Of a DNA stretch of 64,000 nucleotides, positions 744-18,250 are shown in pieces. Under the pieces are notes generated by a model. It saw only the letters and a program-made list of their open reading frames with translations. It had not been told where the DNA came from and did no database searches. Source of the stretch: a bacterium. Lineage in GTDB: Bacteria > Pseudomonadota > Alphaproteobacteria > Rickettsiales > RI-342. The stretch is taken from contig WGMV01000011.1 in the NCBI GenBank assembly GCA_016124905.1, positions 82,673-146,672 on the forward strand, given 5' to 3'. How positions within the stretch are numbered: position 1 is the first letter of the stretch; the number at the start of each line of letters is the position of its first letter. Position numbers and translations under genes: made by a program.

Positions 744-2242
744 TGCATATCCAGCCGGACCATTATAGCTTCAGCCAGACCTACGATGCGGGCAAACCCC
801 AGGTCATCTGGGCGGAACTGCACGCGGACACAGAAACCCCGGTCAGCGCCGCGCTGAAATTGCTTCCGAAGGACGGCTACGGCTTCCTGCTTGAATCCGT
901 CCATGGCGGCGAAACCCGTGGGCGTTACTCCCTGCTCGGCATGGACCCCGACCTGCTCTGGCGTTGCAACGGCAAACTGGCCGAACATGCCGTGCTGGAA
1001 GCGAACAAAGCCCCCGACTGGGTAAAGTCCGACCGCACCGCGCTGGAAGACCTTCGCCATTTCCTCAACGAATCCCGCCTGGAAACCACCCCCGGCCTGC
1101 CCCCATTGCCCACCGCCATGGTCGGCTATCTGGGCTATGAAATGACCGGCCTGGCGGAAAAAATGCCTGAGCCAAAAGACGGTGAGGACATCCCTGATGC
1201 CCTGCTCATGCGCCCGCAATCCATGCTGGTGTTCGATGCCGTCAAAGGCACCATGGTGCTGGGCCGCGTGGTGCGCCCCAGCAAGAATGTGCTGGCCGAG
1301 CAGGCCTATGTGGATGCCAAACAACGGCTGGAAGCCATGGCCGAGCTGCTCTCCACTCCCCTGCCCGCCACCCGCCCTCGCGCCGTCAAGCCGACACCGA
1401 AAGCGAGTGATTCCTTCACCTCCAACATCAGCCGCGCCGGGTTTTACCATATGGTCGAACGCGCCAAGGAATATATCCGCGCGGGCGACATCTTCCAGGT
1501 GGTGCTGAGCCAGCGCTTCACCGCGCCTTTCAAGCAATCCCCCTTCGCCTTCTACCGGGCGCTTCGCCACCTCAACCCCTCGCCCTTCCTGTTCCTGCTG
1601 AACATGGGCGGCTTCCAGCTGGTCGGCTCCAGCCCCGAAATTCTTGTTCGCCTGCGCGATGGCAAGGTCACCGTCCGCCCCATCGCTGGCACCCGGCCCC
1701 GCGGCAAAACCACGGAAGAGGATAACCGCCTGGCCGAGGAACTTTTGGCCGATGAGAAAGAATGCGCCGAACACCGCATGCTGCTGGACCTCGGCCGCAA
1801 CGATGCCGGAAAAGTCTCCAAAGGCGGCACCGTGCAGGTGACCCAGCGCATGATCATCGAGCGCTACTCCCACGTCATGCACGTGGTCTCCAACGTGGAA
1901 GGCGACATCCGCCCGGAATGCGATGCGCTGGACGCCCTGCTGGCAGGCTTCCCCGCAGGCACCGTCAGCGGCGCCCCCAAAATCCGCGCCATGGAAATCA
2001 TCCACGAGCTGGAACCGCAAAAACGCGGCTTCTACGCCGGTGGTGTCGGCTATTTCGCCGCCGACGGCAGCATGGACAGCTGCATCACGCTGCGCACCGC
2101 CCTCATCAAAGACGGAAAAATCCACGTCCAGGCAGGCGGCGGCATCGTGGCCGACAGCACGCCAGACGGCGAATACCAGGAAAGCTACAACAAAGCCAAA
2201 GCCCTCATGGTCGCCGCCGAATCCGCCGCGGAATTCAGCTAA
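743..2242 (+). CDS. trpE: anthranilate synthase component I
   Basis: 499-aa ORF with typical TrpE blocks: FLLESVHGGETRGRYS, GDIFQVVLSQRF, SSPEILVR, IAGTRPRG, LLDLGRNDAGKV, YSHVMHVVSNVEG, GTVSGAPKIRAMEII, RGFYAGGVGY. Confidence 0.95.
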   Translation: MHIQPDHYSFSQTYDAGKPQVIWAELHADTETPVSAALKLLPKDGYGFLLESVHGGETRGRYSLLGMDPDLLWRCNGKLAEHAVLEANKAPDWVKSDRTALEDLRHFLNESRLETTPGLPPLPTAMVGYLGYEMTGLAEKMPEPKDGEDIPDALLMRPQSMLVFDAVKGTMVLGRVVRPSKNVLAEQAYVDAKQRLEAMAELLSTPLPATRPRAVKPTPKASDSFTSNISRAGFYHMVERAKEYIRAGDIFQVVLSQRFTAPFKQSPFAFYRALRHLNPSPFLFLLNMGGFQLVGSSPEILVRLRDGKVTVRPIAGTRPRGKTTEEDNRLAEELLADEKECAEHRMLLDLGRNDAGKVSKGGTVQVTQRMIIERYSHVMHVVSNVEGDIRPECDALDALLAGFPAGTVSGAPKIRAMEIIHELEPQKRGFYAGGVGYFAADGSMDSCITLRTALIKDGKIHVQAGGGIVADSTPDGEYQESYNKAKALMVAAESAAEFS

Positions 2243-2264
2243 CTACTTTTATCCATTTAAAGAA

Positions 2265-2548
2265 ACAGCCGTGAGCGCGCCGCATACGGCGCTGTCTCAT
2301 TGCGAACACCGTGAGCAGGAAACAAAACAAAAGTCACAGCCGTGAGCGCGCCGCGTACGGCGCTGTTTCATTGCGAACTCCGTGAGCAGGAAACAAAACA
2401 AAAGTCACAGCCGTGAGCGCGCCGCATACGGCGCTGTCTCATTGCGAACACCGTGAGCAGGAAACAAAACAAAAGTCACAGCCGTGAGCGCACCGCGTAC
2501 GGCGCTGTTTCATTGCGAACTCCGTGAGCAGGAAACAAAACAAAAGTC
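2265..2548. repeat. tandem repeat, 4 copies of a 71-bp unit in two alternating variants
   Basis: The 'gtgagcgcgc' anchor recurs at 2271, 2342, 2413 and 2484 (period 71). Copies 1 and 3 are identical to each other, as are copies 2 and 4 (variants cat/cgt, gtctc/gtttc, acacc/aactc). Each unit carries a GC-rich hairpin (GCGCCG-cata/cgta-CGGCGC) and an A-rich tail (ggaaacaaaacaaaagtc). Confidence 0.9.
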
Positions 2549-2620
2549 GGAGCGCGCTACGCGCGACGGGGCGCGCCTTATTGGCGCGTGATGCCATGCT
2601 TCGCATGGCCACTCAAAGGA

Positions 2621-2656
2621 GCATTAACAGCGAAACTAAAGTTTCGCTGTTAATGC
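2621..2656 (-). terminator. perfect 17-bp inverted repeat (2-nt centre) overlapping the pelG stop codon; possible end-of-operon hairpin
   Basis: The sequence is gcattaacagcgaaact-aa-agtttcgctgttaatgc. The right arm encodes the last PelG residues (LTAKL) and the TAG stop sits in the loop. There is no clear U-run afterwards, so terminator function is uncertain. Confidence 0.35.
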
Positions 2657-4024
2657 GGGATTGTTCGTCACAAACGCATGGAACGTCACGCGCTTCAGGT
2701 AATTCACCACCACGAATGCGCTCACGCCGAAGGACAGCACGCTGGCGAGGAAGAAGCCCACGCCGTAATAAGTGAAGCCCATATGCATGGAGATGATCGT
2801 CAGCAGCGTGTTGGCAATCGCGAACAGCAGCTGCAACATCACCACCGTCTTACGGTCGTCGAAATAGCTGAGCACGATCATCAGGAACACCGACAGGATC
2901 ATGAAGAAGGTACCGAGCGTACCCACGCGGAAGATACCAATCACCATGTAATCCAGGTTCAGCCATTCGAATATCTTCGGCGCCATCACGAAGCAGAGGA
3001 AGCAGATGCTGCCCTGAAGCACGATGAACCCGCGCGTGTTGTTGAACACGTGAGCTTTCACCTGCTCCTGGTTTTGCTTGATACGCGCCAGGTTGGCATG
3101 CTGCAGCATATCGCGGAAATAGCGCAGATACTTTTTGAAGAAGCTGGTCTCCACGCTGAACACGAACAGCGCCAACGACGGCAGAATGGTGAAGTAAGCA
3201 AGGAACATGCCCACGTCATAGGCCTGGTGATAGATCATCCCGCTCGGGTGCACACCGCGATCCGGAGCAAACCACATGATCCATTTATCGATCCAGATGC
3301 CGTAATTGTAGAGGAAACCGCTCGCGGCCAGCTCCCAGTAACGGCGGAAATATGGCGTGAAGGCGAACAGCTCATTGTTCGGCGCGCCATATTGCATGAA
3401 CACCAGTGCGGTGAGCGGAAACACGATCACCGTCAGACCGATGGTGAAAGACGCCACCATGCCCGCCACGCCATATGTATGGCCGAGCCAGGGCATCAGC
3501 AGCACGGCCAGCGCCATGCCCACGAAATACCAGAAGCTGATGGACCAGTAATCCTTCAGCGAGGCGATGAACACGCACACCACCCACATGCTGGAAACCA
3601 GCATGTAATTGATGATGGCCAGGATGCGCACCGGCGTCTCAAAATCCCAGTAAAACCCATAGAAAAAGATCACAATGGGTAGCTGGATGGCATAGGCAAG
3701 CAACAACGCCCCGATCATGGAGCCCGATAGCGTGTCGAGGTTCTTGTCGTGAATACAATCCGCCAGATACCGCGTCACCGTCATGTAGATCGGCCCGGTA
3801 AACAGCACCGAGAAGGCGAAATTGTAAATGATGATGAGACGGAACGTCTCCACACCCGGCAGGTAATCGAAATCGGAGCTGAGGTAATAGGCGCCATACA
3901 GGGCGAATACCGTCATCAGCCACGGACCGGCGGAAGCGATGGCCGCATGGGTATAGGCCTGCGCCACACCCATAAGGTCATCCTTGCGGGTCAGTTTACG
4001 GAGTACGAAGCCAATACCAGCCAT
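2636..4024 (-). CDS. pelG: Pel polysaccharide biosynthesis membrane protein PelG (MOP/PST-like exporter)
   Basis: 462-aa polytopic membrane protein. The N-terminus MAGIGFVLRKLTRKDDLMGVAQAY...ASAGPW is the characteristic PelG start. It is the last gene of a colinear pel cluster, 1 nt after the pelF stop. Confidence 0.9.
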   Translation of the reverse strand: MAGIGFVLRKLTRKDDLMGVAQAYTHAAIASAGPWLMTVFALYGAYYLSSDFDYLPGVETFRLIIIYNFAFSVLFTGPIYMTVTRYLADCIHDKNLDTLSGSMIGALLLAYAIQLPIVIFFYGFYWDFETPVRILAIINYMLVSSMWVVCVFIASLKDYWSISFWYFVGMALAVLLMPWLGHTYGVAGMVASFTIGLTVIVFPLTALVFMQYGAPNNELFAFTPYFRRYWELAASGFLYNYGIWIDKWIMWFAPDRGVHPSGMIYHQAYDVGMFLAYFTILPSLALFVFSVETSFFKKYLRYFRDMLQHANLARIKQNQEQVKAHVFNNTRGFIVLQGSICFLCFVMAPKIFEWLNLDYMVIGIFRVGTLGTFFMILSVFLMIVLSYFDDRKTVVMLQLLFAIANTLLTIISMHMGFTYYGVGFFLASVLSFGVSAFVVVNYLKRVTFHAFVTNNPALTAKL

Positions 4025-4025
4025 G

Positions 4026-5519
4026 TTACGCCACTTTCCTGATAGTCGGTTTGCTTACCAGATCGCTGTAGAGCTTTTTGTAAGCCTCGATCTGCATATC
4101 CTTGCGGTAATAGGTCTGCACGCGGCGGCGGATGGCCTTGCTCGCTTCATTGTAGCGGTCGGCATCCGTCAGCAGGCTGATGATGGCCTGCGCCGTCTCC
4201 TGGGAGGAAGCCAGACCCGTCACGGCGCCACCGGCGCCTAATGCGGGGTCTTCGTCTTCCGTGCCCATCACCAGCTCGCGGCAGGCGCCCACATCCGTCA
4301 CCACGGAGGGGATACCGGCTGCGCCGGCTTCCAGCAGCACCAGCGGCTGGGCTTCGGAAATGCTGGTCATGACCATCAGGTCGACCATCGGGAGGTATTT
4401 TTCCACTTCCACCTTGCCGGTGAAGGTGATGTTGCCTTCCAGCATAAGGTGGGCGACGAGCTGTTTGCACTCCTCGAAATATTCGGGGTCCTCGTCCGTC
4501 GGGCCGAGGATATAGGCATCCAGGTTCGGGATATGCTGCTTCACCACCGCGCAGGCGCGGATGAAGGTCTTCACGTCCTTAATCGGCACCACACGGCCGA
4601 TGAAGGCCACGGTGGGGCGTTCCGCCGGGCTGTGGCCCAGGCTGCTGTAACGCTGGAAATCGATCCCGTTCGGGATGACCTGAAGCTTGCGCGGGTCCGC
4701 GCCGCCTTCGATCTGCGCGCGCTGATTCCCTTGGAACAGCGTCACGATCGGATCGGCCGCCTCATAGCAGATGTTCGCATAGCTCATGAAAGCATCCATC
4801 CACATCTGGCGCAGGTCCTTGATGGGGCGGTCCATACCCAGGTGAATCGGGGATTCATCGCCGATCCAGTCGGCCATGTTGATCTCGATGCGGCGTTCGT
4901 TGGTATAAATACCATGCTCGGTCAGCGCGCAGCGGCCGCCCGTTTCATGGGCCAGACGCGCGGCCATGATGCCGGCGAAACCCGTGGACAGCGCATGATA
5001 CACCTTGGCCTTCGGCGCATCGGCCAGAAGCAGCGAGAACAACCCACCCATCAGCGAGCGCCAGGACCAGAAAAAGTCCAGGAAGGAGCTCTCCGCATGG
5101 TGCTCTTCGTAAATCTCGGTCATCATTTCCCAGCTTGCCTCGGAATCGAGCAATACATGAGAGCCAATGCCCGGATAAGCGCGGATAAGGTCGATCATCG
5201 CACGCAGATTGTCCATATGGCCCTGGCCGGTGAACATGGCGTCCACATGCGGCTTCATGCGGGCGAACAGGTCGGTCGGCACTTTTTCGGCGCCTTTTGG
5301 CAGCACCTGAAGGCGCACATCCACGATATCCACCACGTTTTTCGGCAGCACGTATTTACGTGCCAGCTCGTCATCCTTCGGCTGGATGCAAAGCAGCGAG
5401 AATTTCGTATCCGGCAGGCTCAGGATCAGGTCATGCACCCAGGCGGAAACACCGCCCACCACATACGGGTAGGTACCTTCCAGAATCAGACAGACATCGG
5501 ACTGAGGGCGCGAGCTCAT
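4026..5519 (-). CDS. pelF: GT4 glycosyltransferase PelF
   Basis: 497 aa. The N-terminal DVCLILEGTYPYVVGGVSAWVHDLI block is typical of PelF, and there is a GT4 EX7E-type region (SISEAQPLVLLEAGAAGIP). It has a 4-nt overlap with the pelE stop. Confidence 0.9.
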   Translation of the reverse strand: MSSRPQSDVCLILEGTYPYVVGGVSAWVHDLILSLPDTKFSLLCIQPKDDELARKYVLPKNVVDIVDVRLQVLPKGAEKVPTDLFARMKPHVDAMFTGQGHMDNLRAMIDLIRAYPGIGSHVLLDSEASWEMMTEIYEEHHAESSFLDFFWSWRSLMGGLFSLLLADAPKAKVYHALSTGFAGIMAARLAHETGGRCALTEHGIYTNERRIEINMADWIGDESPIHLGMDRPIKDLRQMWMDAFMSYANICYEAADPIVTLFQGNQRAQIEGGADPRKLQVIPNGIDFQRYSSLGHSPAERPTVAFIGRVVPIKDVKTFIRACAVVKQHIPNLDAYILGPTDEDPEYFEECKQLVAHLMLEGNITFTGKVEVEKYLPMVDLMVMTSISEAQPLVLLEAGAAGIPSVVTDVGACRELVMGTEDEDPALGAGGAVTGLASSQETAQAIISLLTDADRYNEASKAIRRRVQTYYRKDMQIEAYKKLYSDLVSKPTIRKVA

Positions 5520-6637
5520 GCGACCTTCTCCTTACGGTTATCAATGATGATGGCAGCCCAGCTGCGCACCGTTTCCTTCACCACCATCGGCAGCGTGTCG
5601 ATCGCCTCGATCGAGGCCACATGGCGGCGGGCGAGTTCACCCAGCGCCTTGAAGCGGCCTTTGCGGAAATAGCTTTCCATCAGCCACAGCACCAGCGCGG
5701 GGTTGTAGGTGCCGCGTTGCATGGCGGATTCCAGCCACTCGATGGCCTTGTCATCCTGCCCGCTGCGGGCATAAAGGCGGCCAACGGCCAGCACGGCGCC
5801 CGCATCATTGGGTTCGCGCTCCAGGTAGCGTTGGTAATGTTTCAGGGCTTCCTTGCGGCTTTCCGCCTCGGAATCCACCGAGGTCAGACCCGCATAGGCA
5901 TGTTCGTCATGCAATTGTGCCAGCGCATAATGCAGGCGCGGGTCATTCGGGTGGGTTTTCTCGATATCCTTAAGGAACATCAGGCGCTGCATGAAGCGAT
6001 TTTCGATACTCGCCATGGCGGTGGCGGCCTGAATGCGCACGGAGTTGTTCTCATCCTTCAGCGCAAGCTTCAGCGCGGGCATGAAGGACGGCTGAAAATG
6101 GCGGCCGAGAATGCCGAGCATGTCCTGTTTCTGGCGCACGGTGCCGAGTTGGAGAATCTCACGGAACGGCACCACCGTATATTCCGGCAGCGCGTCCTGC
6201 TGGTAGCGCTCCAGGTAATCGGCCAGCTTCTCGCCTTCCGTCACCAGGTCTTCCGGGAACATGTAGGCAAACCACTCATTGAACGTGCGCGGACGCATCA
6301 CGGTGCGGATCAGCGAGGCCATCACCATGCCCGCGGCACCGAACGGTCCCATCACGCCAATCACCATCGCCAGCAGAATTGGCCCCTGGGACAGACGGCC
6401 CAGTGCCACGCCGCCGCGCGCCATGAAGGCGGCCACGGCCGTCACCGCAATATGCAGCAGTAGCACGAACAGCAACGGGAACGTACCCTTTACGGCCCAG
6501 ACAAAAAGGATGAACTCGACCACGAAGGCGATGACGGACAGCAGCAGGGTGCTGATGCCGGGGCCACCTTCGGGCACGATCATGATGGTGTCATCATCAT
6601 CCTGCTTGGTGAAAAACTGTTCGTGACGCTTCGTCAT
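5516..6637 (-). CDS. pelE: PelE-like inner-membrane TPR protein
   Basis: 373 aa with two N-terminal hydrophobic helices followed by TPR-like helical repeats (..ALKHYQRYLEREPNDAGAVLAVGRLYARSGQDDKAIEWLE..). It occupies the syntenic position between pelD and pelF. Confidence 0.7.
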   Translation of the reverse strand: MTKRHEQFFTKQDDDDTIMIVPEGGPGISTLLLSVIAFVVEFILFVWAVKGTFPLLFVLLLHIAVTAVAAFMARGGVALGRLSQGPILLAMVIGVMGPFGAAGMVMASLIRTVMRPRTFNEWFAYMFPEDLVTEGEKLADYLERYQQDALPEYTVVPFREILQLGTVRQKQDMLGILGRHFQPSFMPALKLALKDENNSVRIQAATAMASIENRFMQRLMFLKDIEKTHPNDPRLHYALAQLHDEHAYAGLTSVDSEAESRKEALKHYQRYLEREPNDAGAVLAVGRLYARSGQDDKAIEWLESAMQRGTYNPALVLWLMESYFRKGRFKALGELARRHVASIEAIDTLPMVVKETVRSWAAIIIDNRKEKVA

Positions 6638-6658
6638 GGGGATATTCTCTTTTATGCG

Positions 6659-8128
6659 TTAAGCGACCTGGCGGGGAGCATGGCGGTAAAGGCTGCGCAC
6701 CTCATGGGCGAAGCGCGGCTTGGAGCCTTTGCGGCCGGTGGCTTTTTTGCCAAGGGCTTTCTGGATTTTGTCCACCACTACATGCGCATTCTGCGCCGGG
6801 GTATAGGGCAGCAGCACCGCATAGTTCCAGTGATTGTCGTTATATTCAAACGCCTGGTCCACCGCGCGGAGGTTGGAGCGAACGGCCTCGCCCAGGGCAA
6901 CAGCGGCCTGCTGCTGGCCTTCGCGGTCCAGTTCATCCACGTTTTCCACACGCACCAGCACCATGCTCACGTCAAAACCGGCACGTTTGCCAAGGGCGGA
7001 AAGGAAATCGCTCTGGCGGCGCAGGAAGGACTGCGACAGCAGCTGGAGCGACGGGTTGATGAGGCTTTCCTTCTTCGCATCCTGATAACGGCGTGCGTTG
7101 GTGTAGGTCGCGCCCACCCATTCGCACAGCATACGGAAGGTTTCCACCGTGGTCAGGTTGATATCAAGGAAGTGGCATTTCTCCACTTTCAGCATGCCGA
7201 TCACCTCACCGGTGTCCTTGTTCAGAACCGGCCCGGCGATCAGGCCTTCATGGCCCAGAATGTCGCGCTGGTCATCATTGATGACGGTCAGGAATTCGCG
7301 CTTGGAAACAACGGCTTCAAACAGCGGGTTCGTGTTGTTGATTACCGGCTGATAAAGGTCGTCATCTTCCCAGTTCTGGGAGATCACCACTTCCAGCTTG
7401 TTATTGTTCAGCAGATACAGCGAGAATTTCTCGGCATGCATCAATGCCTGCACGAACTCGCCCACCGCCATCACCACATCGCGCGGCTCGAGCTTTTCCA
7501 GCTTGTTGGCGGCGGTATAAAGCGACAGACCGCTCTTCATCTGGGAAGCCATCTGCACTTCGAGGTTGTTCTTCACCTTCTCAAGCTGGCGGAAGGACTG
7601 GCTGATGAATTCCTCGCGCTCTTTGGCTTTCTCGTAGAATTCACGCAGCAGGTCGCGCTCGCGGATCTGGCGCAGGCGCAATTCACCCAGCAGCAGCGCG
7701 CTGACGAACCAGAGGATCGGCAACTTGGTCATGGCCAGCAAAAAGTCGTAATCCGTCATGTCCAGCGTCTTGGCCGGCAGGTTGCCGATCAGGAAGGCAA
7801 GCGTTGCAATCGTGGCGGCCAGCAAACCCTCGCTGCTGCCATATTGCGTGGCGATCATCACCACGATGATGAAGAACGGGTGCGGGTTCACATCGGCGAA
7901 TCGGTTGCCATGCCAGAAAAAGTCGATGATCAGCGCGAGCACGAAGAAGATCGCGATCTCAATCACCGCCGAGGTACGGAAGCCGAATATGCGCGGCAGA
8001 TCCTTCTGGGGCAGTTCTTCCTCCGCCTGGTTGGACTGGAAGTGAACCTTGCGGTTCGCCCCAAAATCCGCGGGGAAGACCGAGCTGGACTGCGCGGAAC
8101 CCGGTTTGTTGGAAAAGCTGTTGCTCAT
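6659..8128 (-). CDS. pelD: PelD-like c-di-GMP receptor (TM + GAF + degenerate GGDEF)
   Basis: 489 aa with four N-terminal hydrophobic segments, then a soluble region carrying an RxxD I-site-like motif (LRRQSDF) and no GGDEF catalytic motif. It occupies the pelD position upstream of pelE. Confidence 0.8.
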   Translation of the reverse strand: MSNSFSNKPGSAQSSSVFPADFGANRKVHFQSNQAEEELPQKDLPRIFGFRTSAVIEIAIFFVLALIIDFFWHGNRFADVNPHPFFIIVVMIATQYGSSEGLLAATIATLAFLIGNLPAKTLDMTDYDFLLAMTKLPILWFVSALLLGELRLRQIRERDLLREFYEKAKEREEFISQSFRQLEKVKNNLEVQMASQMKSGLSLYTAANKLEKLEPRDVVMAVGEFVQALMHAEKFSLYLLNNNKLEVVISQNWEDDDLYQPVINNTNPLFEAVVSKREFLTVINDDQRDILGHEGLIAGPVLNKDTGEVIGMLKVEKCHFLDINLTTVETFRMLCEWVGATYTNARRYQDAKKESLINPSLQLLSQSFLRRQSDFLSALGKRAGFDVSMVLVRVENVDELDREGQQQAAVALGEAVRSNLRAVDQAFEYNDNHWNYAVLLPYTPAQNAHVVVDKIQKALGKKATGRKGSKPRFAHEVRSLYRHAPRQVA

Positions 8129-8163
8129 GATCGTCTTCCTTAGGTTTTCGTCTGAAATAAGGG

Positions 8164-11100
8164 TTAGAAACGTTTGGTGATGTAGGCGCCGACGCGATCG
8201 ACACGGTCACCGGTCGCATTGGAGCTGAGGGTGCTGCTGCCGCGAAGCGTGGCGAGCCATTCATCGGTCAGCAGATAATTGAGCTCGCCCCCGGCGAACG
8301 GCCCGTGGCCGCCCAGTCGGTCATAGGCATAACCGCCATAGGCTTCCCACCAGAAATTCTCGTGGCTGATATCGTCGCGCACGTTCAGGGCGAGGGAGTG
8401 AATCTCACGGCTGAAGATCGGCAGCGGACGGAAGCGCGCGCCACCACGGTTGTAGAACTCGGAATCGTCAAACAGGTATTCCCCGTCGAAACCGTAAACC
8501 ACGCGAAGCTCGGGCTTGGTGAACTGCGGCAGGCGATACCCCACCAGCGCGTTCACGCCCATACCGTCGGCCACTTCGTCGTCGCCGCTATCCACGGTAT
8601 AACGCACATAGTTGGTGCCTACGCCGCCGAACCAGTTTTCGCCATAGCGCATATCCTGATACACGCCGTAACGGTCGCGGTTGGCTTCGCTCACGATACC
8701 CTGGCCGAGGATCCAGAACGGCTTGTTATACTCGCCGAAGAATCGCAGGGCGCCGAGGAAACCGGGCACGCTGTAAGCACCTTCCACACCGGCGCCGCTG
8801 TTGCTGCCGATAACGCCGAGCTCGCCCACATTCCCGTTATCGAAAATGTGATGGTAGTAAAGCTCCGCCATCCAGGCATTGTCATCCACATTGCTGACCG
8901 TGCCGTCGAGATTATAGGCATTGTCCATCTTGTAGAAGAAATGGTCGTAGACGAAACCGATCTTGTCGTAATTTTTCAGCAGCTTGTGGCCTTTCACCGT
9001 CGTCATGATACCTTCTTCGGCATCCTGCGTCTGGCGCCATTCCGCACCGGCGGTCAGCTGCGTGCGCTGGCGGTCGTAAATCCGCTTGCGAACGCGGGCA
9101 AGGTCCTTGTTCTCCGGCGCAACGGCGGTGGCGTCATCCAGGCTGCGCAACGCCTGCTGCTGGAAGCCCATGTAGTTGTAGATGCTTGCCTGGCCGATTT
9201 TCGGATAGGGACTGTCGGGATATTCCGCTTCCAGCGCCTTGTATTTGGCAAGCGCCTGCTGGGTCTGGCCGCGGCCCACCATCAGCTCGGCGCGCAGCAG
9301 TTCGATGCGCAGCTTCTGGGAACCGATGGCGCTGCCACCTTGCTCATAATCATCGCCGAGCAGTTGCACCGGCTCCTGCCCATCGGGCAGCGGCGCCAGG
9401 CTGTTGATGAGCCTTTCGGCTTCATTGTATTTCTGCTGCTTGATCAGCACTTCCGCATAGTCACCCGCAACTTCGTAATCATCGGGGTTCTGGCTGTTGA
9501 GCCACTTGTAAATCTCAAGCGCTTCGCCTTCGCGGCCCAGCAGGTAACGGGCCTTGGCTTCCGCCAGCCAGATGTTGCGGTCTTTTTCCTGGGCATTTTC
9601 GATCAGCTCCAGCGTGCGCACAAGATGCTTTTTGGCATTCTCATGCTCTTCGCTGCGCAGATAGATGATGCCGAGGCGCAGATGCACCAGGTAATCCGGG
9701 TCGATGTAATCGCCCTCGCCTGCTTTATCCGACGTCTCTTTCAGGTAACGGTTGTAATAGCTTTTGGCTGCGTCGAAATCGCCTTCAAAGAAGGAGATAT
9801 TGCCGAGCTCCTTCAGCATATACGGCGCAAACGCATCCGTATTCAGCACGCGCTCGAAACCCTCGCGCGCCAGCTTCATCAGGCCTGCGCTGTTGGCGGC
9901 ATTGGCATAGAACGCCACGCGCTCGGGGTTTTTCTCGCGTTCCATCGCCTGACGGAGGATCGGCTCCAGCACGGCTTTGTTTTTCTGGTTCTGCAGCGCG
10001 GTGATGTACATATCCACCGTCTCTTCGCTTTCGCGGGTCAGGTCACGCCCTTGCATCACGTCGGCCACCAGGTCGTTGCGGCGAACGCTCACCAGGTGCT
10101 TCAGCCAGCCGGCGCGGGCTTTGCCTTCGCTGCCATTGGCATTGGCCAGCAGCCAGTTCACGCCTTCCGCCGGGGGTTGCTGGCCCCAAAGAAACACAGT
10201 CTGCTGCACGTCCTTATTGTTCGGCTGGTTTTTCGGGGCTTTCTGCGCCAGTTTAAAGAAGAGCCTGGAAGCCTCGGTCTTCTCGCCCGCATCGGAAAGC
10301 TTATAAGCCAGCACGCGCATTTCGGCATCGTTGGTCGTTTTGGCGGCACGGGCTTTCCACAGCGGCACCAGGTCTTTCTTGATGCCACGCTTCTTCAGCG
10401 CGTCTTCATAGGCAAACAGCCAGTTGCCGCCCTGGTTCACAGCCAGGGATTCGAGATATGGCAGCGCCTTGGACGCATCGCCATGCTTGATGAGCAAACC
10501 GATATAGCCGTTCTTGTCGTTCTGGCTCACGCTCGGGCTTTTGAGGGCGAATTCCGTGAAGGCCACCACATCCTTGGTCTGCTTGGCCTTCAGCGCGTAG
10601 TTCACATAAAGCGGGCCGTATTTGGCCGGGTTTTTGTAAGCCAGCTGTTTCACCATCGGCAGGGCCACGTTGTAAGCGCCCATTTCCAGCAGGTTGTTCA
10701 TGGCAACCTCGCGGTCATCCTGGTCCAGCTTGGGGTCGTTGTAACGGGCGATAAGCAGCTGGATATATTTCTCACGCGCAGCGGCATAGCCGGGGGATTT
10801 CGGTCCCGCGCGCACCACTTTCTGGAGTGCGGCGAAATAGATATCGTTTTTCGCCAGCTGCTCGGAATTATACTTGCCTTCCAGCAGCGCGATCGTCTTG
10901 CCCGCCTCACCTGCACGCAGATAGGCCTGCATCAGGTTGGTCAGGCCAATTTCATCCTGCGGGTAAGCCGCATGGTAACGCTCGGCCACGGCCACCATGA
11001 AATGCGGCTGGTTGGCGGCGGAGGAAACATAATACAGATCAAGCAGAATGCGGTTGCTGGTCGCGGTCGGCTCCTTGTCGAGGAAGGCGAACACTTCCTT

Positions 11101-12540
11101 CTCGCGGCCATTGGCGGCGGAAAGCAACAGCCAGCCGACATTCACCGGCGTGGTCACCTTGTTCAGCTCCATGCGCTTGTTGCGCACATTCTCGGCAAAC
11201 GTGAGGCCCTCTTTCTGAGCGCCGGCCAGAATATAGGCATTGGCCACGCGCGGCATCAGCGGGTCCACCGCTTCGTTATTCACATCAAGGCTGCGCAGCA
11301 CGGCCACGGCGCGGTCATTCATGCCAACGCGTGCCAGAAACACGGCAAAATGCGCGCGCTCGAAATATTCCATCTTGTCGGTATTGATACCGGCTGCGAC
11401 TTTTTGCGCGCCTGCACGGTCGCCGGAGGCAGCCAGCAGGCCCATATGGATCACCTGGTTGCGGGCAAGATATTCATTGCTGAGCTTTTTGCGCAGGAAA
11501 GTGCGAAGCAGCTGGTGACGCTCGTTGAAGCTCAGATCCACCATGTTCAGCACGAGCGGCTTGTTCAGCTGCTCCACATCGATTTTCTCGGCCAGCTCCA
11601 TCACCATGTCTTCATCGCCGAATGCAACGGCGAGTTCGAGATAGGTCGGAAGCAATTGCTGCGGCAACGTACCTTTGCGGTAGAAATCGCCCAGAATCTT
11701 ATAGGCTTCGGCATTATGCGCAATGGCGCGGTGCAGGTTGATATAGGCAACCAGCAAATCCGGATATTGGTCAAACTGGTCCATGTGCGGCTTCAGCATT
11801 GCAATGGCTTCTTCCGTATGGCCGAGCGTCGAGATGGCCGCGGCATAATAAGCCAGGGTCGACGGATCTTTCGTCTTGGCAGCCCAATCCTGGGCCAGCT
11901 TCACCGCTTCATCCACCTGGTTATTGTCCACCAGCAGGCTGAAGAGAAGCTGCGTCTGGTCACGGCCCATGGATTGCGGGTAACGGCTCTTGTAAAGCTT
12001 CATATAGGCCAGCGCGTCGGACTTCTGGTCCATCGACGCCAGCAGTTGCACCAGCGTCAGCAGTTGCGGCTCGGCTTCCTTGCCGCCGTCGGCGAGTTTG
12101 GAAAGCACGTCGATCTGCTGCTGGTAGCTGGCATTGTAATTATAAATACGCGACAATTCGGCCAGGTAGGTTTTCTGGCTGTCCATTTTGGAGAGCTGCT
12201 CGAGGTTGCGCAGGTAATCTTCCGGGCGCTGGGCATATTGGTAATATTGCCCCAGGCGGATGCGCGCATCCACGCTGTTAGGATTTTCCTTAACGTAGGC
12301 TTCCATCACCTCAATGGCTTTGTTCACTTCGCCGTTCTGCAGGTAAAGCTGCGCCAGCGTGCCCACCGTGGTGGTGTCCAGACCGCGCGTCTTGGCGATC
12401 TGCTCGAACCCTTTTTTCGCAGTGTCGTAATCCTTGTCCTTCATGTGCATCAGGGCGAGTTCCTTTTCCTGCGGAAGAAGAAAGAACACGAGCCCTAAAC
12501 CGGCCAGACAGATGAGTAGGATGATGATGTACTGCTTCAT
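8164..12540 (-). CDS. pelB: PelB-like TPR scaffold fused to an outer-membrane beta-barrel porin
   Basis: 1458 aa with an N-terminal membrane anchor (IIILLICLAGLGLVFFLL) and a very long TPR region. The C-terminal part is Gly/Tyr/Asp-rich with alternating strands and ends ...VGAYITKRF (terminal aromatic, typical of OM barrels). Confidence 0.8.
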   Translation of the reverse strand: MKQYIIILLICLAGLGLVFFLLPQEKELALMHMKDKDYDTAKKGFEQIAKTRGLDTTTVGTLAQLYLQNGEVNKAIEVMEAYVKENPNSVDARIRLGQYYQYAQRPEDYLRNLEQLSKMDSQKTYLAELSRIYNYNASYQQQIDVLSKLADGGKEAEPQLLTLVQLLASMDQKSDALAYMKLYKSRYPQSMGRDQTQLLFSLLVDNNQVDEAVKLAQDWAAKTKDPSTLAYYAAAISTLGHTEEAIAMLKPHMDQFDQYPDLLVAYINLHRAIAHNAEAYKILGDFYRKGTLPQQLLPTYLELAVAFGDEDMVMELAEKIDVEQLNKPLVLNMVDLSFNERHQLLRTFLRKKLSNEYLARNQVIHMGLLAASGDRAGAQKVAAGINTDKMEYFERAHFAVFLARVGMNDRAVAVLRSLDVNNEAVDPLMPRVANAYILAGAQKEGLTFAENVRNKRMELNKVTTPVNVGWLLLSAANGREKEVFAFLDKEPTATSNRILLDLYYVSSAANQPHFMVAVAERYHAAYPQDEIGLTNLMQAYLRAGEAGKTIALLEGKYNSEQLAKNDIYFAALQKVVRAGPKSPGYAAAREKYIQLLIARYNDPKLDQDDREVAMNNLLEMGAYNVALPMVKQLAYKNPAKYGPLYVNYALKAKQTKDVVAFTEFALKSPSVSQNDKNGYIGLLIKHGDASKALPYLESLAVNQGGNWLFAYEDALKKRGIKKDLVPLWKARAAKTTNDAEMRVLAYKLSDAGEKTEASRLFFKLAQKAPKNQPNNKDVQQTVFLWGQQPPAEGVNWLLANANGSEGKARAGWLKHLVSVRRNDLVADVMQGRDLTRESEETVDMYITALQNQKNKAVLEPILRQAMEREKNPERVAFYANAANSAGLMKLAREGFERVLNTDAFAPYMLKELGNISFFEGDFDAAKSYYNRYLKETSDKAGEGDYIDPDYLVHLRLGIIYLRSEEHENAKKHLVRTLELIENAQEKDRNIWLAEAKARYLLGREGEALEIYKWLNSQNPDDYEVAGDYAEVLIKQQKYNEAERLINSLAPLPDGQEPVQLLGDDYEQGGSAIGSQKLRIELLRAELMVGRGQTQQALAKYKALEAEYPDSPYPKIGQASIYNYMGFQQQALRSLDDATAVAPENKDLARVRKRIYDRQRTQLTAGAEWRQTQDAEEGIMTTVKGHKLLKNYDKIGFVYDHFFYKMDNAYNLDGTVSNVDDNAWMAELYYHHIFDNGNVGELGVIGSNSGAGVEGAYSVPGFLGALRFFGEYNKPFWILGQGIVSEANRDRYGVYQDMRYGENWFGGVGTNYVRYTVDSGDDEVADGMGVNALVGYRLPQFTKPELRVVYGFDGEYLFDDSEFYNRGGARFRPLPIFSREIHSLALNVRDDISHENFWWEAYGGYAYDRLGGHGPFAGGELNYLLTDEWLATLRGSSTLSSNATGDRVDRVGAYITKRF

Positions 12541-12546
12541 AAGGCC

Positions 12547-14955
12547 TTAGTAAGTTATGGTAACTTTTACAGCTTGGTTCGTTGGAGCTTGCAGTGAGAA
12601 AGTAAAAAATCCGTTGTCCATTAAAGGATTAAGGACCTTTCCTCCCTCGCTACTTACGGTAGCTTTGCCATTTTTTGGCAGTCGCCAGCGCATTGTTCCG
12701 AGTCCGAATCCTTGGGCATAAAACACTAGCTCTGTTTCAGAATTATGAATTCCCCACACTTTCCAACGAGAGTTAATTAAATAAGGTAAATGTGCATACG
12801 CATATTCACCATATAAATCAAGCTTTGTTAACTTTATGACCGGTTCTTCCACCGCCGCATCCAGATAAATATAGAGCGAACCTTGCAGATAACTGTGCCC
12901 CACCACACCTCGGGAATGCTGATAATCTACAGTTTTACCACCTGCCCTGTCGAACCGGATAGTTTGGAGGTCACCGCGCTCTTTTATCAACCATTGGTCT
13001 AGACCGTCGGGAATAATCTGGGTGGTATAAAACCCGTTGGCGATTCTGGAATAATTGGTGGCCGTCACGGGATGGATAAGACTGCGGCGTGCAAAATTAA
13101 GGTTTTCCTTTACCGCGTTCAGGCTGGCCAGCTTCTGGCCGGAGAACATATGGTAATAGATATTGAACGGCTTCACCCGCACCGGCATCTCGGTATTCAT
13201 CACCGTGCGGTACAGGTATTTATAGCCGTAATAGCGCCCCGACCAGTCCCCCGTATAGGTGATCTCGTTACTGCTGGATGAGTAGATCTGTCGCTCCCCT
13301 CCCACCAAACGGCCGATCGGCGCAACCCATACGTAGGAAGGAAATTCCGGGTCAAACCGTGTATCCCCGCCATTCAGGTTCAAAAGTCCCTGGTTGCGCG
13401 CCTTGCGAATGGCGGCCTCAAACGGGCGCGTGTTACCGCTCCACTGCACCAGGCCGATTTGCTTGCCCTTGGGCACGAACTGCTGAATGTAAAAGGCTGC
13501 GCCGCACATTTCCTGGTCGAGGTTAAAGGGCATATTGGCATAAGCGCGCGGAATGTAATAACGCCCGGGAATGGACTTGGCCCCCGGCACGTCGGTCAGC
13601 TCGCTCTGCGCCTTGTTATCGATCTCGCATTGCATGTTCACATTGTGGTCGTCATGGTCATTGCCGATGGAGGTCACCTGCTTGAACAGCTTGCTGGCAA
13701 AATTATCCGCCCAGTGGCCGGAGCTGTAATTCTTGAAATACTGCCGCTCGATATTGGGGTCGTATTTGGCGAAGAAGTCCCAATAGAACGGGTGGCTGTA
13801 GGTATGCGAGGCAGGCTCCACGTTAGGCTGGGCATAGATCTCCCGCGCTACTTCCTGGCTTTCCCGTTTTCCCACCCATGCCGGGTCCAGGTCGGCCGCG
13901 ATGGCCGCCACCGTCACCGGCAGGTCATTGTATTTTTTGATAATTTCCTCAAGCACCACCCGCGCGGCATACGCATGCCTGTCCTTGTAGGCGGGCACGT
14001 CGCTCAGGTTATTCCAGCCGTCGCCGTCAATATGGTGGTAGAAAATCCGCCGCCCTGCCTGGGTGGTAGTATCGGGCTTGGGCAATTCATCCGTGTGGTA
14101 GGCGCGGCGGAAAAACTCAAACGGGTTCACATACCACTGGCGGAATGCCTTCACCTCGTCCTCGTCCTTGGTCTGCTCCAGTTCTGAGAATACTTCATAC
14201 CCTTCCGCCACATAGCTGAAGCGGTCATTCTGCATCACCAGCGTGCTTCGCTTGTCGGTGGCTTCTTTGCTGTCCACGGCCAGGTAGACCTGGCTATCGG
14301 CCTCGGTCACATCCACCCCCTGATAGGATTTGATGACTGGCGGCAATTGACGCTCAAAGCCGAATACCCGCCGGTCCTCATGCACCACTTTCACGTCGTA
14401 GGTCACGGTCACCCAGCGGTCGCGCACATTGATACCGAGCTTGTTAAGCAGCGCATTGATACGCGGAAGCGTCGGCTTATTGCCCTTCCTGTCTTCGAAC
14501 AGAAAGGAATGGCCAAAACTGACGATGGGAATCCCCTTATCCGCCGCCGCCTCGATCCATTTCAGATAGGCCTCGGCATCCGGCACGCGGGAGGCCGGGT
14601 CGAACCATAAAAACACCCCCCTCACCCCGTCGATCGTGTTTAAATCCGGCAGCCCATGCTCAATATCGAAATATTTGACGATCAGGCCGAGGTGGTTCAT
14701 CGGCATTTCCGCCATGCGGTGGGTATAGGTCTCCGCCAGGTCGGGGTTGGCGGTACTCGTGTAAAGCGTCACAATCGTGCGTGGCAGCGGCTTGCCGGGC
14801 GGCAGCTCCATGGCCTTGGCATGCACCGGCGTTACCGGAGCCGCCGTTTTCACCACGGCTTTCTGTTTGGCATGCTTGGCTGCTTCCGCCACGGGCGAAA
14901 GCGCGGCATTCAACATGATAAACGCGCAGAAAATGATCAGCAGCCGCTTTATCAT
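12547..14955 (-). CDS. pelA: PelA-like polysaccharide deacetylase (reductase-like + CE4 deacetylase + C-terminal beta-sandwich), lacking the hydrolase domain
   Basis: 802 aa with its own signal peptide (MIKRLLIIFCAFIMLNAALSPVAEA). It carries the CE4-type metal/catalytic motifs YHHIDGDGW and SHTYSHP. It lies directly upstream of pelB, and its start overlaps the preceding ORF's stop (ATGA at 14952-14955). Confidence 0.75.
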   Translation of the reverse strand: MIKRLLIIFCAFIMLNAALSPVAEAAKHAKQKAVVKTAAPVTPVHAKAMELPPGKPLPRTIVTLYTSTANPDLAETYTHRMAEMPMNHLGLIVKYFDIEHGLPDLNTIDGVRGVFLWFDPASRVPDAEAYLKWIEAAADKGIPIVSFGHSFLFEDRKGNKPTLPRINALLNKLGINVRDRWVTVTYDVKVVHEDRRVFGFERQLPPVIKSYQGVDVTEADSQVYLAVDSKEATDKRSTLVMQNDRFSYVAEGYEVFSELEQTKDEDEVKAFRQWYVNPFEFFRRAYHTDELPKPDTTTQAGRRIFYHHIDGDGWNNLSDVPAYKDRHAYAARVVLEEIIKKYNDLPVTVAAIAADLDPAWVGKRESQEVAREIYAQPNVEPASHTYSHPFYWDFFAKYDPNIERQYFKNYSSGHWADNFASKLFKQVTSIGNDHDDHNVNMQCEIDNKAQSELTDVPGAKSIPGRYYIPRAYANMPFNLDQEMCGAAFYIQQFVPKGKQIGLVQWSGNTRPFEAAIRKARNQGLLNLNGGDTRFDPEFPSYVWVAPIGRLVGGERQIYSSSSNEITYTGDWSGRYYGYKYLYRTVMNTEMPVRVKPFNIYYHMFSGQKLASLNAVKENLNFARRSLIHPVTATNYSRIANGFYTTQIIPDGLDQWLIKERGDLQTIRFDRAGGKTVDYQHSRGVVGHSYLQGSLYIYLDAAVEEPVIKLTKLDLYGEYAYAHLPYLINSRWKVWGIHNSETELVFYAQGFGLGTMRWRLPKNGKATVSSEGGKVLNPLMDNGFFTFSLQAPTNQAVKVTITY

Positions 14956-15881
14956 GGCTTACCCTCCGCTTTCACGGGCACGGCCTGCTGCGCCACGGGG
15001 GTTTCCGGTGGTTCCGGTATAATGCGGTTAAGCTCAACCGTGGCGACATACGGATGGAACCCCTGTGCCCGGTGCGCCGCATAAATTTCGCGGATACCCG
15101 CCGGTTGAGCGGGGTCCCAGTAATCCAGCGTGAATATCTTCAGGTGTGGATAACGCGCCTGCACGGCCTTCAAGTAACTCACCCGCTGTTGATATTCCGC
15201 CGCGGGCACCTTGCTGTAGGTCTTGGTCTTGAAATCATAGGTCGTGTAGAGGCTCTCACCCAGCACGCCGTTAATATCGCCCGCCACTTCAGGCAACACA
15301 TCAAAACCCCGGTTCATCAAAATGAATATCTGCGGATAATGCAGCCTGATCGTGTGGATCAGCCGCACGGCCGCTTCTTTCATGCCCTTGTATTTCGCAG
15401 GCTCCCTCTGTTCCAGGTAGCTGGCATTATCCATCGTATCGATGAAAATGCCGTTCACACCGCGAAACAGCACCTCGGGAATAATCTCCTCCACCACCAG
15501 ACGCGGCCAGTCGGCATTACGCATATCCACCAGGCGGCTTTCGGGCCAGTTGGCGTTCGGCGCAAGCAGCATGCCTGCCTTTTCAGCATCGGCAAAATAC
15601 CAGCGGGTTTCATGCACCTCGCCCAGGCTTACATAACCAAGCACGGTCTTGTTATTATTCACGTAATCGCGCACCGGCAGGTTGCGCACCGTTTCCAGCA
15701 CAATCATCTGATAGGGATTGAACGCGGTGGAAAGCGCCTTCTGTCCGTAATACACCACCCATTTCACCGGTTTGGGCGGTGCGGGCGCATTGGCCGTGCT
15801 GCCGCCTATCGCCCCAAGCAGCAAAAGGGCGGCCAGCACGCCCGAAACGCCTTTTAACAATTTTCCTGCCCGATAAGGCAT
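14952..15881 (-). CDS. pelA: stand-alone PelA-hydrolase-like glycoside hydrolase (GH114/GH166-type TIM barrel, endo-alpha-1,4-polygalactosaminidase-like)
   Basis: 309 aa with a signal peptide (GVLAALLLLGAIGG). The pattern VVYYGQ..., VLGYVSLGEV, GIFIDTMDN resembles the N-terminal hydrolase domain of PelA. A GGAGAG RBS precedes the ATG. It is the first gene of the pel cluster. Confidence 0.7.
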   Translation of the reverse strand: MPYRAGKLLKGVSGVLAALLLLGAIGGSTANAPAPPKPVKWVVYYGQKALSTAFNPYQMIVLETVRNLPVRDYVNNNKTVLGYVSLGEVHETRWYFADAEKAGMLLAPNANWPESRLVDMRNADWPRLVVEEIIPEVLFRGVNGIFIDTMDNASYLEQREPAKYKGMKEAAVRLIHTIRLHYPQIFILMNRGFDVLPEVAGDINGVLGESLYTTYDFKTKTYSKVPAAEYQQRVSYLKAVQARYPHLKIFTLDYWDPAQPAGIREIYAAHRAQGFHPYVATVELNRIIPEPPETPVAQQAVPVKAEGKP

Positions 15882-15982
15882 AGATTTCTCTCCATGCCGC
15901 AGAATTACGCCGAAAGCATGAAGAAAACTTGAAATCTGTCTTTATATAGGCTTAACGGCAGCGCCTTTCTATCCCGGCTGCC

Positions 15983-16013
15983 CAACAAAAAAGGGCGCCC
16001 GGAGGCGCCCTTT
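15983..16013 (-). terminator. rho-independent terminator after the RTX gene
   Basis: On the minus strand the sequence reads aaagggcgcc-tccg-ggcgcccttt followed by TTTGTT, 20 nt after the stop at 16033. It separates the RTX gene from the pel operon. Confidence 0.65.
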
Positions 16014-16032
16014 CGTACCCATAGTGGGAAGC

Positions 16033-17802
16033 TTAGACGAACACGAAGTCGTTGAGCGTCCAGACATGGTCGTTGCCGGTAACGGTATGAGCGCCGTCGG
16101 CATCCGTGTAGGAAACGGAACCATGCGAGGTGATGGCTTCGTATTTGCCGGCATGGTCGTTCCAGAAGTAAACCGTGGAAGTGCCCAGGCCTTTGATATC
16201 GGCGGCTGCATAGCCATCCAGGTAGATTTTTTCGTGGTTCGTGGTGAAATCGCTGATGAGATCCACACCATCGCCTTTGGCGAAGTTGAAGATATCGTCG
16301 CCAGCGCCGCCGGAGACCACATCGCCGATGACGATGGTGTTTTTGCTGGCGCAACCGCAGGAAGCAACCGTGAAGCTGCCGTCGTCGGTACCGCCGACCA
16401 GCGTGTCGCAGTCGGAACCGCCATTGAGCGTGTCGTTGTTTTCGTTACCTTCGATCCAGTCGTTGCCGGTATCACCATAAATGATGTCCTTGCCGGTACC
16501 GCCGAAGAGATTGTCATTATCCTCGTTGCCGTGGATAAAGTCATTGCCTTCGTCACCCGTGATGAGGTCGGTGCCGCAATTACCATACAGGCGGTCGTTT
16601 TCCGTGCCGCCGTAAATGGTATCGTCGCCGTTGCCGCCATAAATGGTGTCGTCGCCGGCGCAGCCGTTCAGCAGGTCGTTGCCGTCTTCACCAAGGATAT
16701 AGTCATTGCCTTGGTTGCCATGGGCTTCGTCATTGCCGATGCCGCCATAGATCTTGTCGTCACCGTCGCCGCCCTGCATGAAGTCATTGCCATCCTGGCC
16801 ATACAGCGTGTCGTTGCCGGCTTCACCGGAGAGGGAGTCATTATCGGCGCCGCCTTCCACCCAGTCATTATCAGCACCGGCCCATACGGTATCGTTACCG
16901 GCATTGCCGAAAATCGTATCGTTGCCAGCGCCGCCTTCAACATAATCATGGCCAGCATCAGCGGAGATCTTATCCGCGCCATCGCCACCATAGATATTAT
17001 CGTTGCCGTTACCGCCCCAGATGGTGTCGTTGCCACTGAAGCCATCGATCGTGTCGTTGCCGTCACCGCCGACGAGGGCATCGTTGCCATTGCCACCGTT
17101 CAGGTAATCATGGCCCGCGTCACCGAAAATGGTGTCGTTTTCGGAACCGCCATAAATGGTGTCATCGCCATTGCCGCCATACAATGTATCGCTGCCGCTT
17201 TCACCTTCAATATAATCGTTACCGTCTTCACCCCAGACCTTGTCATTGTCTTTACCGGCGAACACCCAGTCATTGTCGGCGCCAGCCATGATGGTGTCGT
17301 TGCCGTCATCACCGGTGATAAGGTCGGAACCAGAGCCGCCGCTGACGGAGTCACCGTCGCCACCGGCATAAATCGTGTCATTGCCGCAACCGCCGATCAG
17401 CGTGTCGCAACCGAAGAAGCTGCCGTTGATATAGTCATTGCCATTGCCGGCATCGATGTAGTCATCGCCTTCGTTGCCATCCAGCCAGTCGTTGCCGTCG
17501 CCGCCATAGATGGTGTCGCGGCCGTCGCCACCGTGGATGGTGTCGTTACCGATGTCACCGGCGAAGTAATCATTGCCGGCATTGCCCCACATCAGGTCGT
17601 TGCCTGCGCCGCCCAGCACGATGGCTGCTTTGGCGGAGTTGACGTAGAACACGTCATTGCCCGCGCCGCCGTCCATGTAGTTGTTCTTGCCGTTCATCAA
17701 GCCGGACAGGGAATCGTTACCGGCGGTCCCGCCAATAAGATTATAGGGTGCGCCTGCGCCGAATACGGCGTTGATCAGGGCTTGGTTAACGGTAACAGGC
17801 AT
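16033..17802 (-). CDS. RTX (hemolysin-type calcium-binding repeat) secreted protein
   Basis: 589 aa made almost entirely of tandem GGxGxDxUx nonapeptides (GGAGNDLMWG, GGDGRDTIYGGDGNDWLDG...). There is no N-terminal signal peptide. The C-terminus ...VWTLNDFVFV resembles a T1SS C-terminal signal. Confidence 0.9.
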   Translation of the reverse strand: MPVTVNQALINAVFGAGAPYNLIGGTAGNDSLSGLMNGKNNYMDGGAGNDVFYVNSAKAAIVLGGAGNDLMWGNAGNDYFAGDIGNDTIHGGDGRDTIYGGDGNDWLDGNEGDDYIDAGNGNDYINGSFFGCDTLIGGCGNDTIYAGGDGDSVSGGSGSDLITGDDGNDTIMAGADNDWVFAGKDNDKVWGEDGNDYIEGESGSDTLYGGNGDDTIYGGSENDTIFGDAGHDYLNGGNGNDALVGGDGNDTIDGFSGNDTIWGGNGNDNIYGGDGADKISADAGHDYVEGGAGNDTIFGNAGNDTVWAGADNDWVEGGADNDSLSGEAGNDTLYGQDGNDFMQGGDGDDKIYGGIGNDEAHGNQGNDYILGEDGNDLLNGCAGDDTIYGGNGDDTIYGGTENDRLYGNCGTDLITGDEGNDFIHGNEDNDNLFGGTGKDIIYGDTGNDWIEGNENNDTLNGGSDCDTLVGGTDDGSFTVASCGCASKNTIVIGDVVSGGAGDDIFNFAKGDGVDLISDFTTNHEKIYLDGYAAADIKGLGTSTVYFWNDHAGKYEAITSHGSVSYTDADGAHTVTGNDHVWTLNDFVFV

Positions 17803-17993
17803 GGCGATTCCTCTTCTATATTAAAAAAGTGTTAATTCCTATAACGGAACAATCTCCGGCAGGCAATGGTTTTTTGTGTGAAACTTTTATGTAGGTTCCG
17901 CGGAACACCCGGATTTGGTAAATTCCGGCGCATAAGAAAGTCATTCGTTTTTGCCGTTTTTTAACAAATTCCCCTCCTCAGGCGATGCCCCGC

Positions 17994-18022
17994 TTGACAA
18001 GTTGGCCGACTTGTGGTGATAA
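17994..18022 (+). promoter_or_regulatory. candidate sigma70-type promoter for rpmG
   Basis: TTGACA (17994-17999), a 17-bp spacer, then TGATAA (18017-18022), about 50 nt upstream of the rpmG ATG. Confidence 0.3.
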
Positions 18023-18070
18023 AGCCTCCCTCAATTCTATAAGTTTACGTATCTGCCTCGGGGAATTACC

Positions 18071-18241: not shown

Positions 18242-18250
18242 TAGGCTTCG

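Follow-up and report, generated by a model that had tools for sequence, protein, structure and literature searches.

A pel operon without pelC in an uncultured Rickettsiales-labelled alphaproteobacterium and its probable mode of export

In canonical Pel export complexes PelC forms a dodecameric lipoprotein ring on the outer membrane porin PelB, where basic residues at the periplasmic rim of the barrel dock aspartate 119 of PelC. How the Pel polymer, a sticky polysaccharide of biofilms, might leave the cell when this ring is missing is the question raised by a pel cluster on contig WGMV01000011.1 of assembly GCA_016124905.1, a member of the Alphaproteobacteria assigned to Rickettsiales RI-342. 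The stretch analysed here, referred to as the window, comprises 64,000 nucleotides (positions 82,673 to 146,672 of the forward strand) and carries on its minus strand all pel genes except pelC. With a probability of roughly 0.7 we read this cluster, from its sequence, as a complete and selectively maintained Pel operon of a type different from that of Pseudomonas, which would export its polymer without PelC. The initial annotation of the locus had left three options, namely that PelC is encoded elsewhere, that its function was absorbed by a longer PelB, or that export is independent of PelC.

Seven minus-strand open reading frames (ORFs) fill positions 2636 to 15881 in the order pelA_h-pelA_d-pelB-pelD-pelE-pelF-pelG, and the ORF list reproduces gene order and coordinates exactly as first annotated. 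The features are as follows.

14952-15881, minus strand: pelA_h, 309 amino acids, a secreted GH114 glycoside hydrolase, the hydrolase half of PelA as a gene of its own (PF03537, E 3.2e-17)
12547-14955, minus strand: pelA_d, 802 amino acids, the rest of PelA with reductase-like, deacetylase and C-terminal jelly-roll regions, overlapping pelA_h by 4 nucleotides
8164-12540, minus strand: pelB, 1458 amino acids, an N-terminal membrane helix, a tetratricopeptide repeat (TPR) solenoid and a C-terminal outer-membrane barrel in one ORF (many TPR matches in Pfam)
8129-8163, minus strand: spacer between pelB and pelD, 35 nucleotides with the Shine-Dalgarno sequence AGGAAG, as read from the sequence; canonical loci have pelC here
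6659-8128, minus strand: pelD, 489 amino acids, an inner-membrane GAF-domain protein and presumed receptor of cyclic di-GMP (c-di-GMP) (GAF_3, E 6e-8)
5516-6637, minus strand: pelE, 373 amino acids, a membrane protein with C-terminal TPRs (Pfam TPR matches at residues 261-319)
4026-5519, minus strand: pelF, 497 amino acids, a GT4 glycosyltransferase (NF038011, 488.4 bits against a cut-off of 100, full length; DUF3492 and Glycos_transf_1)
2636-4024, minus strand: pelG, 462 amino acids, a polytopic inner-membrane protein (PF16933, 396 bits against a cut-off of 29, profile positions 1-452 of 452)

The pelB frame ends in ...ITKRF and a TAA stop codon at 8164-8166, and the AGGAAG stands 6 nucleotides ahead of the pelD ATG at 8128. 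The gap between pelB and pelD is too short for a gene, and its length of 35 nucleotides agrees with the initial annotation.

Eighty pel loci were drawn from public genomes with a PelF alignment as query, which was used after PelD alone had found no loci of relatives. The initial annotation had proposed a survey of related loci for the same architecture, and the fetched loci of relatives do contain it: all 13 pelB-pelD junctions have spacers of at most 66 nucleotides, and pelD directly follows pelB or, where pelB is split, its porin half. Most relatives show the order pelA_h-pelA_d-pelB-pelDEFG, a few being without one of the pelA genes in the fetched stretch or having pelB in two ORFs. Orthologues of pelA_h occupy the equivalent position, those of pelD are present in all related loci, and the position of pelE is conserved too. 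A single-ORF PelB of 1284-1530 amino acids directly before pelD is found in Rickettsiales-labelled and other alphaproteobacterial metagenome-assembled genomes (MAGs), in Chlamydiota and in Acidobacteriota; loci with a split PelB and no pelC occur in Nitrospinota, in a Lambdaproteobacteria-labelled MAG and in Gamma- and Betaproteobacteria. A divergent PelC was considered for the pelB-pelD gaps of loci L054, L060, L096, and L100 and was ruled out; the gaps consist of non-coding DNA or encode the porin half of a PelB that is split in two. PelB, PelD, PelE, and PelF are open frames in 39/39 PelC-free loci despite a PelB identity of only 20-37%, a conservation that argues for purifying selection.

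The PelC-free layout is thus a common but little-described variant which occurs throughout this order and in several other phyla. The operon classification of Bundalovic-Torma et al. treats pelB fission, pelA rearrangements and the higher divergence of PelB and PelC, and the passages found of that paper describe no Gram-negative PelC-free loci (PMC7112194). An epsSMASH preprint reports "pel-like" clusters and does not address pelC, and the searchable open literature yielded no paper that explicitly describes pel operons without pelC in Gram-negative bacteria.

In a PelF tree of 109 rows the nine canonical loci, all with PelC, stand apart from the other 100 rows, which form a clade that includes the window (support of 100 in the Shimodaira-Hasegawa-like approximate likelihood ratio test, SH-aLRT). 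Within the 100-row clade PelC-containing loci sit in one subclade of 40 rows only, where they are interleaved with PelC-free loci. The window itself lies in an unresolved base beside two clades which are entirely PelC-free, one of 21 rows including Chlamydiota and one of 35 rows of Rickettsiales-labelled MAGs. Well-supported branches require PelC state to have changed at least five times; with little support along its backbone, the tree favours neither gain nor loss of PelC.

Among the alternatives to export without PelC, one that we regard as unlikely is that PelC is replaced by a factor of the outer membrane or periplasm which is not homologous to it and whose gene lies elsewhere in the genome, so that export would not be truly accessory-free. 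PelC is called essential in the only system studied (PMC12141448), and such analogues are invisible to sequence searches. In synthase-dependent systems, however, export accessories are normally encoded within the operon, and clustering of the ORFs over the 39 PelC-free loci yielded, besides the pel genes, only one further conserved gene, that of a PelX-like NAD epimerase. Moreover, the PelC-free state is found in several phyla, so that the same unlinked gene would need to travel with the operon.

The epimerase is an NAD-dependent sugar epimerase (PF01370, E 1e-51 to 1e-57) which stands directly upstream of pelA_h in 16/39 PelC-free loci (e.g., L020:13341-14258 and L022:5355-6290) and probably corresponds to PelX; its gene is not in this window. 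A large PelC-free subclade (L034, L039-L042, L044, L045, L047, L049, L056, L099) has the order epimerase-pelA_h-pelB-pelDEFG, and in the fetched stretches of these loci, up to ~21 kb, the gene of the PelA deacetylase was not found. A genome of the same family as the window's (L026, G004:C81:2700-22600) contains a second full-length PelG homologue with 392 bits, and in the 18 kb upstream of it no other pel gene was detected.

A second alternative, that PelC is present and was missed because it is too divergent or lies in the unassembled ~5% of the genome, is very improbable. The assembly (2.36 Mb) is 95% complete and in 47 contigs, and PelC is a small, fast-evolving protein: when a lipoprotein of the collected loci which matches the PelC structures 5t0z, 5t11, and 9h80_C was used as a single sequence, P. 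aeruginosa PelC was reached only at E 6e-6. This lipoprotein belongs to a group of ~190 amino acids encoded between pelB and pelD or pelF in 10/80 loci. As searches of Pfam and NCBIfam turned up no dedicated PelC model, an own profile was built (A2, an alignment of 11 sequences). Against the solved PelC proteins it yields E values of 4e-20 for P. aeruginosa (9h80_C, full length), 6e-20 for Paraburkholderia (5t11) and 8e-16 for Geobacter (5t0z); overall its E values for PelC of Gamma-, Beta-, and Alphaproteobacteria and of Geobacter range from 1e-16 to 1e-67, and GNA1162 is picked up too, at 7e-7. A second, broader profile of 204 sequences was built from the best 150 of 5966 library matches. 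When the six-frame translation of the whole assembly was searched with both profiles, nothing better than E 1.3-2.2 was obtained, so that the absence of PelC noted for the 64-kb window extends to the assembly. A search of the genome with PF05643 (GNA1162-like) gave no match, which is uninformative as the control genomes gave none either.

As a positive control the profile was then applied to 401 genomes sampled evenly over the phylum. In this sample pelG scored above its cut-off in 28 genomes. In 25/25 pel-positive genomes of other orders a PelC match of 59-227 bits was located 4-6 kb from pelG on the same contig; the two pel-positive genomes of the window's order, both 100% complete, had no PelC match. 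Among the 41 genomes closest to the window's, 13 contain pel and 12 of these 13 are without a PelC match. In all, 14/15 pel-positive genomes of the order gave no match, including 100% complete assemblies of 1-10 contigs. Since the validated profile finds PelC neither here nor in these 14/15 genomes, PelC is, by profile search, absent from the lineage, and hidden neither elsewhere in the genome nor by an assembly gap; the suggestion that it is encoded elsewhere can be dropped. The sole match in the order (locus L114, G013:C10:259243-259557) has 34 bits, covers profile positions 46-139 only, and lies in a frame of 245 amino acids that is not on the contig with the pel genes; this frame probably encodes a generic lipoprotein of the TolB_N/LpoB-like kind. 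Beyond the order, whole-genome searches of 25 genomes with PelC-free loci gave no PelC-like match in 18, and in the remaining 7 only partial matches of 22-42 bits inside larger unlinked frames. A Chromatiales-labelled locus (L107:5820-7120) has two tandem pelC paralogues between pelB and pelD.

The length of PelB had suggested a third alternative, a built-in PelC-like funnel formed by the ~265 extra residues, the function of PelC having been absorbed by fusion. It is hardly tenable. With 1458 amino acids PelB is longer than the protein of P. aeruginosa, which we take to have about 1190, as given in the initial annotation and in agreement with residue numbers up to 1190 in PMC12141448. The description as enlarged holds in this comparison only: the length is unremarkable because PelC-containing loci span 1094-1852 amino acids, with 1094-1394 for the undivided pelB ORFs of nine canonical loci and 1246-1852 where split ORFs are added up, and PelB length does not track PelC presence. 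An apparent single frame of 1500 amino acids joining PelB and PelC in locus L118 was rejected; in this GC-rich genome it is a Pro/Arg/Gly-rich shadow ORF upstream of an ordinary pelC, and the real PelB has 1329 amino acids.

AlphaFold models were calculated for residues 1-830 (alignment of 28 sequences, predicted local distance difference test score, pLDDT, 92) and 800-1458 (29 sequences, pLDDT 87). The first yielded one N-terminal membrane helix (residues 2-20) followed by ~50 short helices and zero strands, and Foldseek matched it only to long TPR solenoids (IFT-A, Ski3, Ctr9, Naa15). The second yielded helices to residue ~1158 and then 16 beta-strands at 1161-1457, as assigned by DSSP. On the DNA the two parts of the modelled protein are located as follows.

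9067-12468, minus strand: TPR-like solenoid of PelB, residues ~25-1158, all helical, ~33 helix pairs, containing all of the extra length relative to P. aeruginosa PelB
8170-9060, minus strand: 16-stranded beta-barrel of PelB, residues 1161-1457, ending in ...KRF (DSSP of the model)

Because the part ahead of the barrel is all helical and has no alpha/beta domain, the extra length of PelB is, as modelled, made up of more TPR-like repeats and not of an absorbed PelC; alignment of the PelC profile with the PelB family alignment by hhalign likewise gave a probability of only 0.04%. The initial annotation had named, as evidence against its reading, additional TPR repeats as the only extra length together with a PelC ortholog; the repeats were found, the ortholog was not.

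Best Foldseek matches of the 800-1458 model were BcsC (9b8a, E 1e-13, and 6tzk), PelB of P. aeruginosa (9h80_M, TM score 0.74, root mean square deviation 4.9 Å), and PgaA (4y25, TM score 0.68). The modelled barrel has a short helix in the loop between strands 7 and 8 and a long loop between strands 11 and 12, corresponding in position to the segments of P. aeruginosa PelB which PMC12141448 names Plug-I and Plug-O. Over the aligned periplasmic turns of the barrel, in an alignment of ~20% identity, the net charge is -1.6 in PelC-free, -4.2 in type-2 PelC-containing, and +1.6 in canonical PelBs, and the charges of periplasmic turns and extracellular loops show no pattern discriminating PelC-free from PelC-containing PelBs. 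A crude assignment of inward and outward residues in strands 11-14 gave 8 acidic and 3 basic residues facing the lumen, which resembles the description for P. aeruginosa and is too rough to rely on.

An insert of ~85 amino acids, beta-rich in appearance and with the motif ...GYDSL.I.A.PGY..., separates the TPR solenoid from the few TPRs that immediately precede the barrel in locus L034 (L034:5185-7419) and in most other alphaproteobacterial PelC-free PelBs. It also forms the N-terminus of the split porin ORFs L054:5223-6929, L060:5679-7205, and L070:5187-6782, exactly where split PelBs divide. The window PelB, its nearest relative L036, and the PelBs of Chlamydiota and Acidobacteriota are without it; at this site the window PelB has an acidic loop of 20 residues (~1051-1070) modelled with low confidence.

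The other genes of the operon are intact as well. PelA_d, for which no Pfam match was obtained over its 802 amino acids, aligns in phmmer to P. aeruginosa PelA (PDB 9cgy) at E 6.9e-54, residues 57-701 matching chain residues ~255-812, and is therefore PelA without the hydrolase domain. It keeps the deacetylase motifs HIDGDG (308) and SHTYSHPF (383), so that hydrolase and deacetylase functions of PelA are both predicted to be present, on two secreted proteins with a gene each instead of one. Between the aligned deacetylase blocks PelA_d is ~58 residues longer than P. aeruginosa PelA, its residues 393-478 corresponding to chain residues 562-589 (window 13525-13776, PelA_d ~394-477). PelD matches GAF_3 with 33.5 bits against a cut-off of 27, and a motif search located an RxxD motif, RQSD, at residues 371-374, a putative c-di-GMP binding site which we take to be the equivalent of R367/D370 of P. 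aeruginosa. The spacing between pelA_d and pelB is 6 nucleotides. That the locus is a decaying or non-exporting remnant, as might be thought of an operon known from sequence alone in a small genome (2.36 Mb) of a Rickettsiales-labelled lineage where gene loss is common, is scarcely credible given seven full-length genes with conserved motifs and coupled starts, in an architecture that many families of the order, and other phyla as well, have kept.

Upstream the operon is flanked by an RTX repeat protein (16033-17802, minus strand), downstream by a convergent trpE. The RTX protein has 589 amino acids, consists nearly entirely of RTX nonapeptide repeats (HemolysinCabind, 19 stretches), and ends 152 nucleotides upstream of pelA_h. 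The GC content dips to 0.50 in 12001-13000, compared with 0.55-0.61 elsewhere in the operon; this stretch takes in the beginning of pelB and, at 12547-13000, the 3' part of pelA_d. No riboswitch or other RNA family was found by an Rfam search of positions 1-20000, a promoter and terminator scan performed no better than on shuffled sequences, and no Bcs or Pga family reached its cut-off.

We infer that the Pel system of this locus is active. In the proposed mechanism PelD, PelE, PelF, and PelG would make the polymer at the inner membrane, likely under regulation by c-di-GMP through PelD; PelA_d would deacetylate and PelA_h trim it; and the chain would pass along the very long TPR solenoid of PelB into its own 16-stranded barrel and exit without a PelC ring. 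PelB would then act like BcsC for cellulose and PgaA for PNAG (poly-N-acetylglucosamine). Of the three options initially left for the missing pelC, PelC-independent export is the only one still standing, and conservation and analogy suggest, as the best reading, that PelB alone may export Pel without a lipoprotein ring. The evidence leans somewhat towards a wider view: throughout a large clade of pel loci, found in Rickettsiales-labelled Alphaproteobacteria, Chlamydiota, Acidobacteriota, and other groups, PelB would need no partner to carry Pel across the outer membrane. PelC would then be a lineage-restricted add-on, essential in Pseudomonas because of the canonical architecture of PelB and PelA there and not as an inherent requirement of Pel export.

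Several points weigh against export by PelB alone. Self-sufficiency of PelB contradicts the only experimental model, P. aeruginosa, in which all seven genes are required for Pel-dependent biofilm (PMC10269871). The 2025 paper on the PelBC structure (PMC12141448) describes the PelC ring not only as essential, but also as a unique feature of Pel secretion. No feature of the periplasmic rim of the barrel was found, in the charge comparison at ~20% identity, which would separate PelC-free from PelC-dependent PelBs, and an unlinked, non-homologous substitute of PelC would escape sequence searches. The organism is known only as an uncultured MAG, and expression and polymer export are predictions here as for every PelC-free system. 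On the other hand, PMC12141448 points out that BcsC and PgaA work without a lipoprotein ring and that the necessity of PelC "remains puzzling"; as possible roles of PelC it suggests positioning of the TPRs or docking of the bifunctional PelA. Loss of PelC is not explained by the split PelA, since type-2 loci with PelC also have a split PelA. Natural PelC-free Pel systems offer a comparative handle on which features of PelB make the ring dispensable, and on the role of PelC in positioning PelB as opposed to docking PelA. Where annotation rules demand pelC, too few pel loci will be recognised in environmental Alphaproteobacteria, Chlamydiota, and Acidobacteriota.

Compared with known systems, the operon is closest in content to pelABCDEFG of P. 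aeruginosa (PDB 9h80; PMC12141448), with which it shares homologous PelA domains, PelB, and PelD to PelG in the same order, and a PelB composed of a TPR scaffold and a 16-stranded barrel, with loops where P. aeruginosa PelB has Plug-I and Plug-O. It differs in that the genome has no PelC, PelA is encoded on two genes, and the helical region of PelB is ~280 residues longer; the PelF of the window also stands in a clade separate from that of the nine canonical loci sampled. Type-2 pel loci (Thalassobaculum L090, Magnetococcus L070) share the PelF clade, the split PelA and a comparable total length of PelB, but they have a true pelC between pelB and pelD, and their PelB consists of a TPR gene and a porin gene, the latter beginning with the ~85 amino acid beta-rich domain not found in the window PelB. 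BcsC and PgaA resemble the window PelB in combining a periplasmic TPR solenoid and a 16-stranded barrel in one polypeptide, whereas they serve other synthase systems (BcsA/B, PgaC/D) and other polymers, with a sequence identity of ~13%. The Gram-positive pel operon of Bacillus cereus, pelDEA_DAFG (PMC7112168), also has no pelC and has the PelA functions on separate proteins; there PelB is missing as well, because there is no outer membrane, whereas the locus described here keeps the full outer-membrane exporter.

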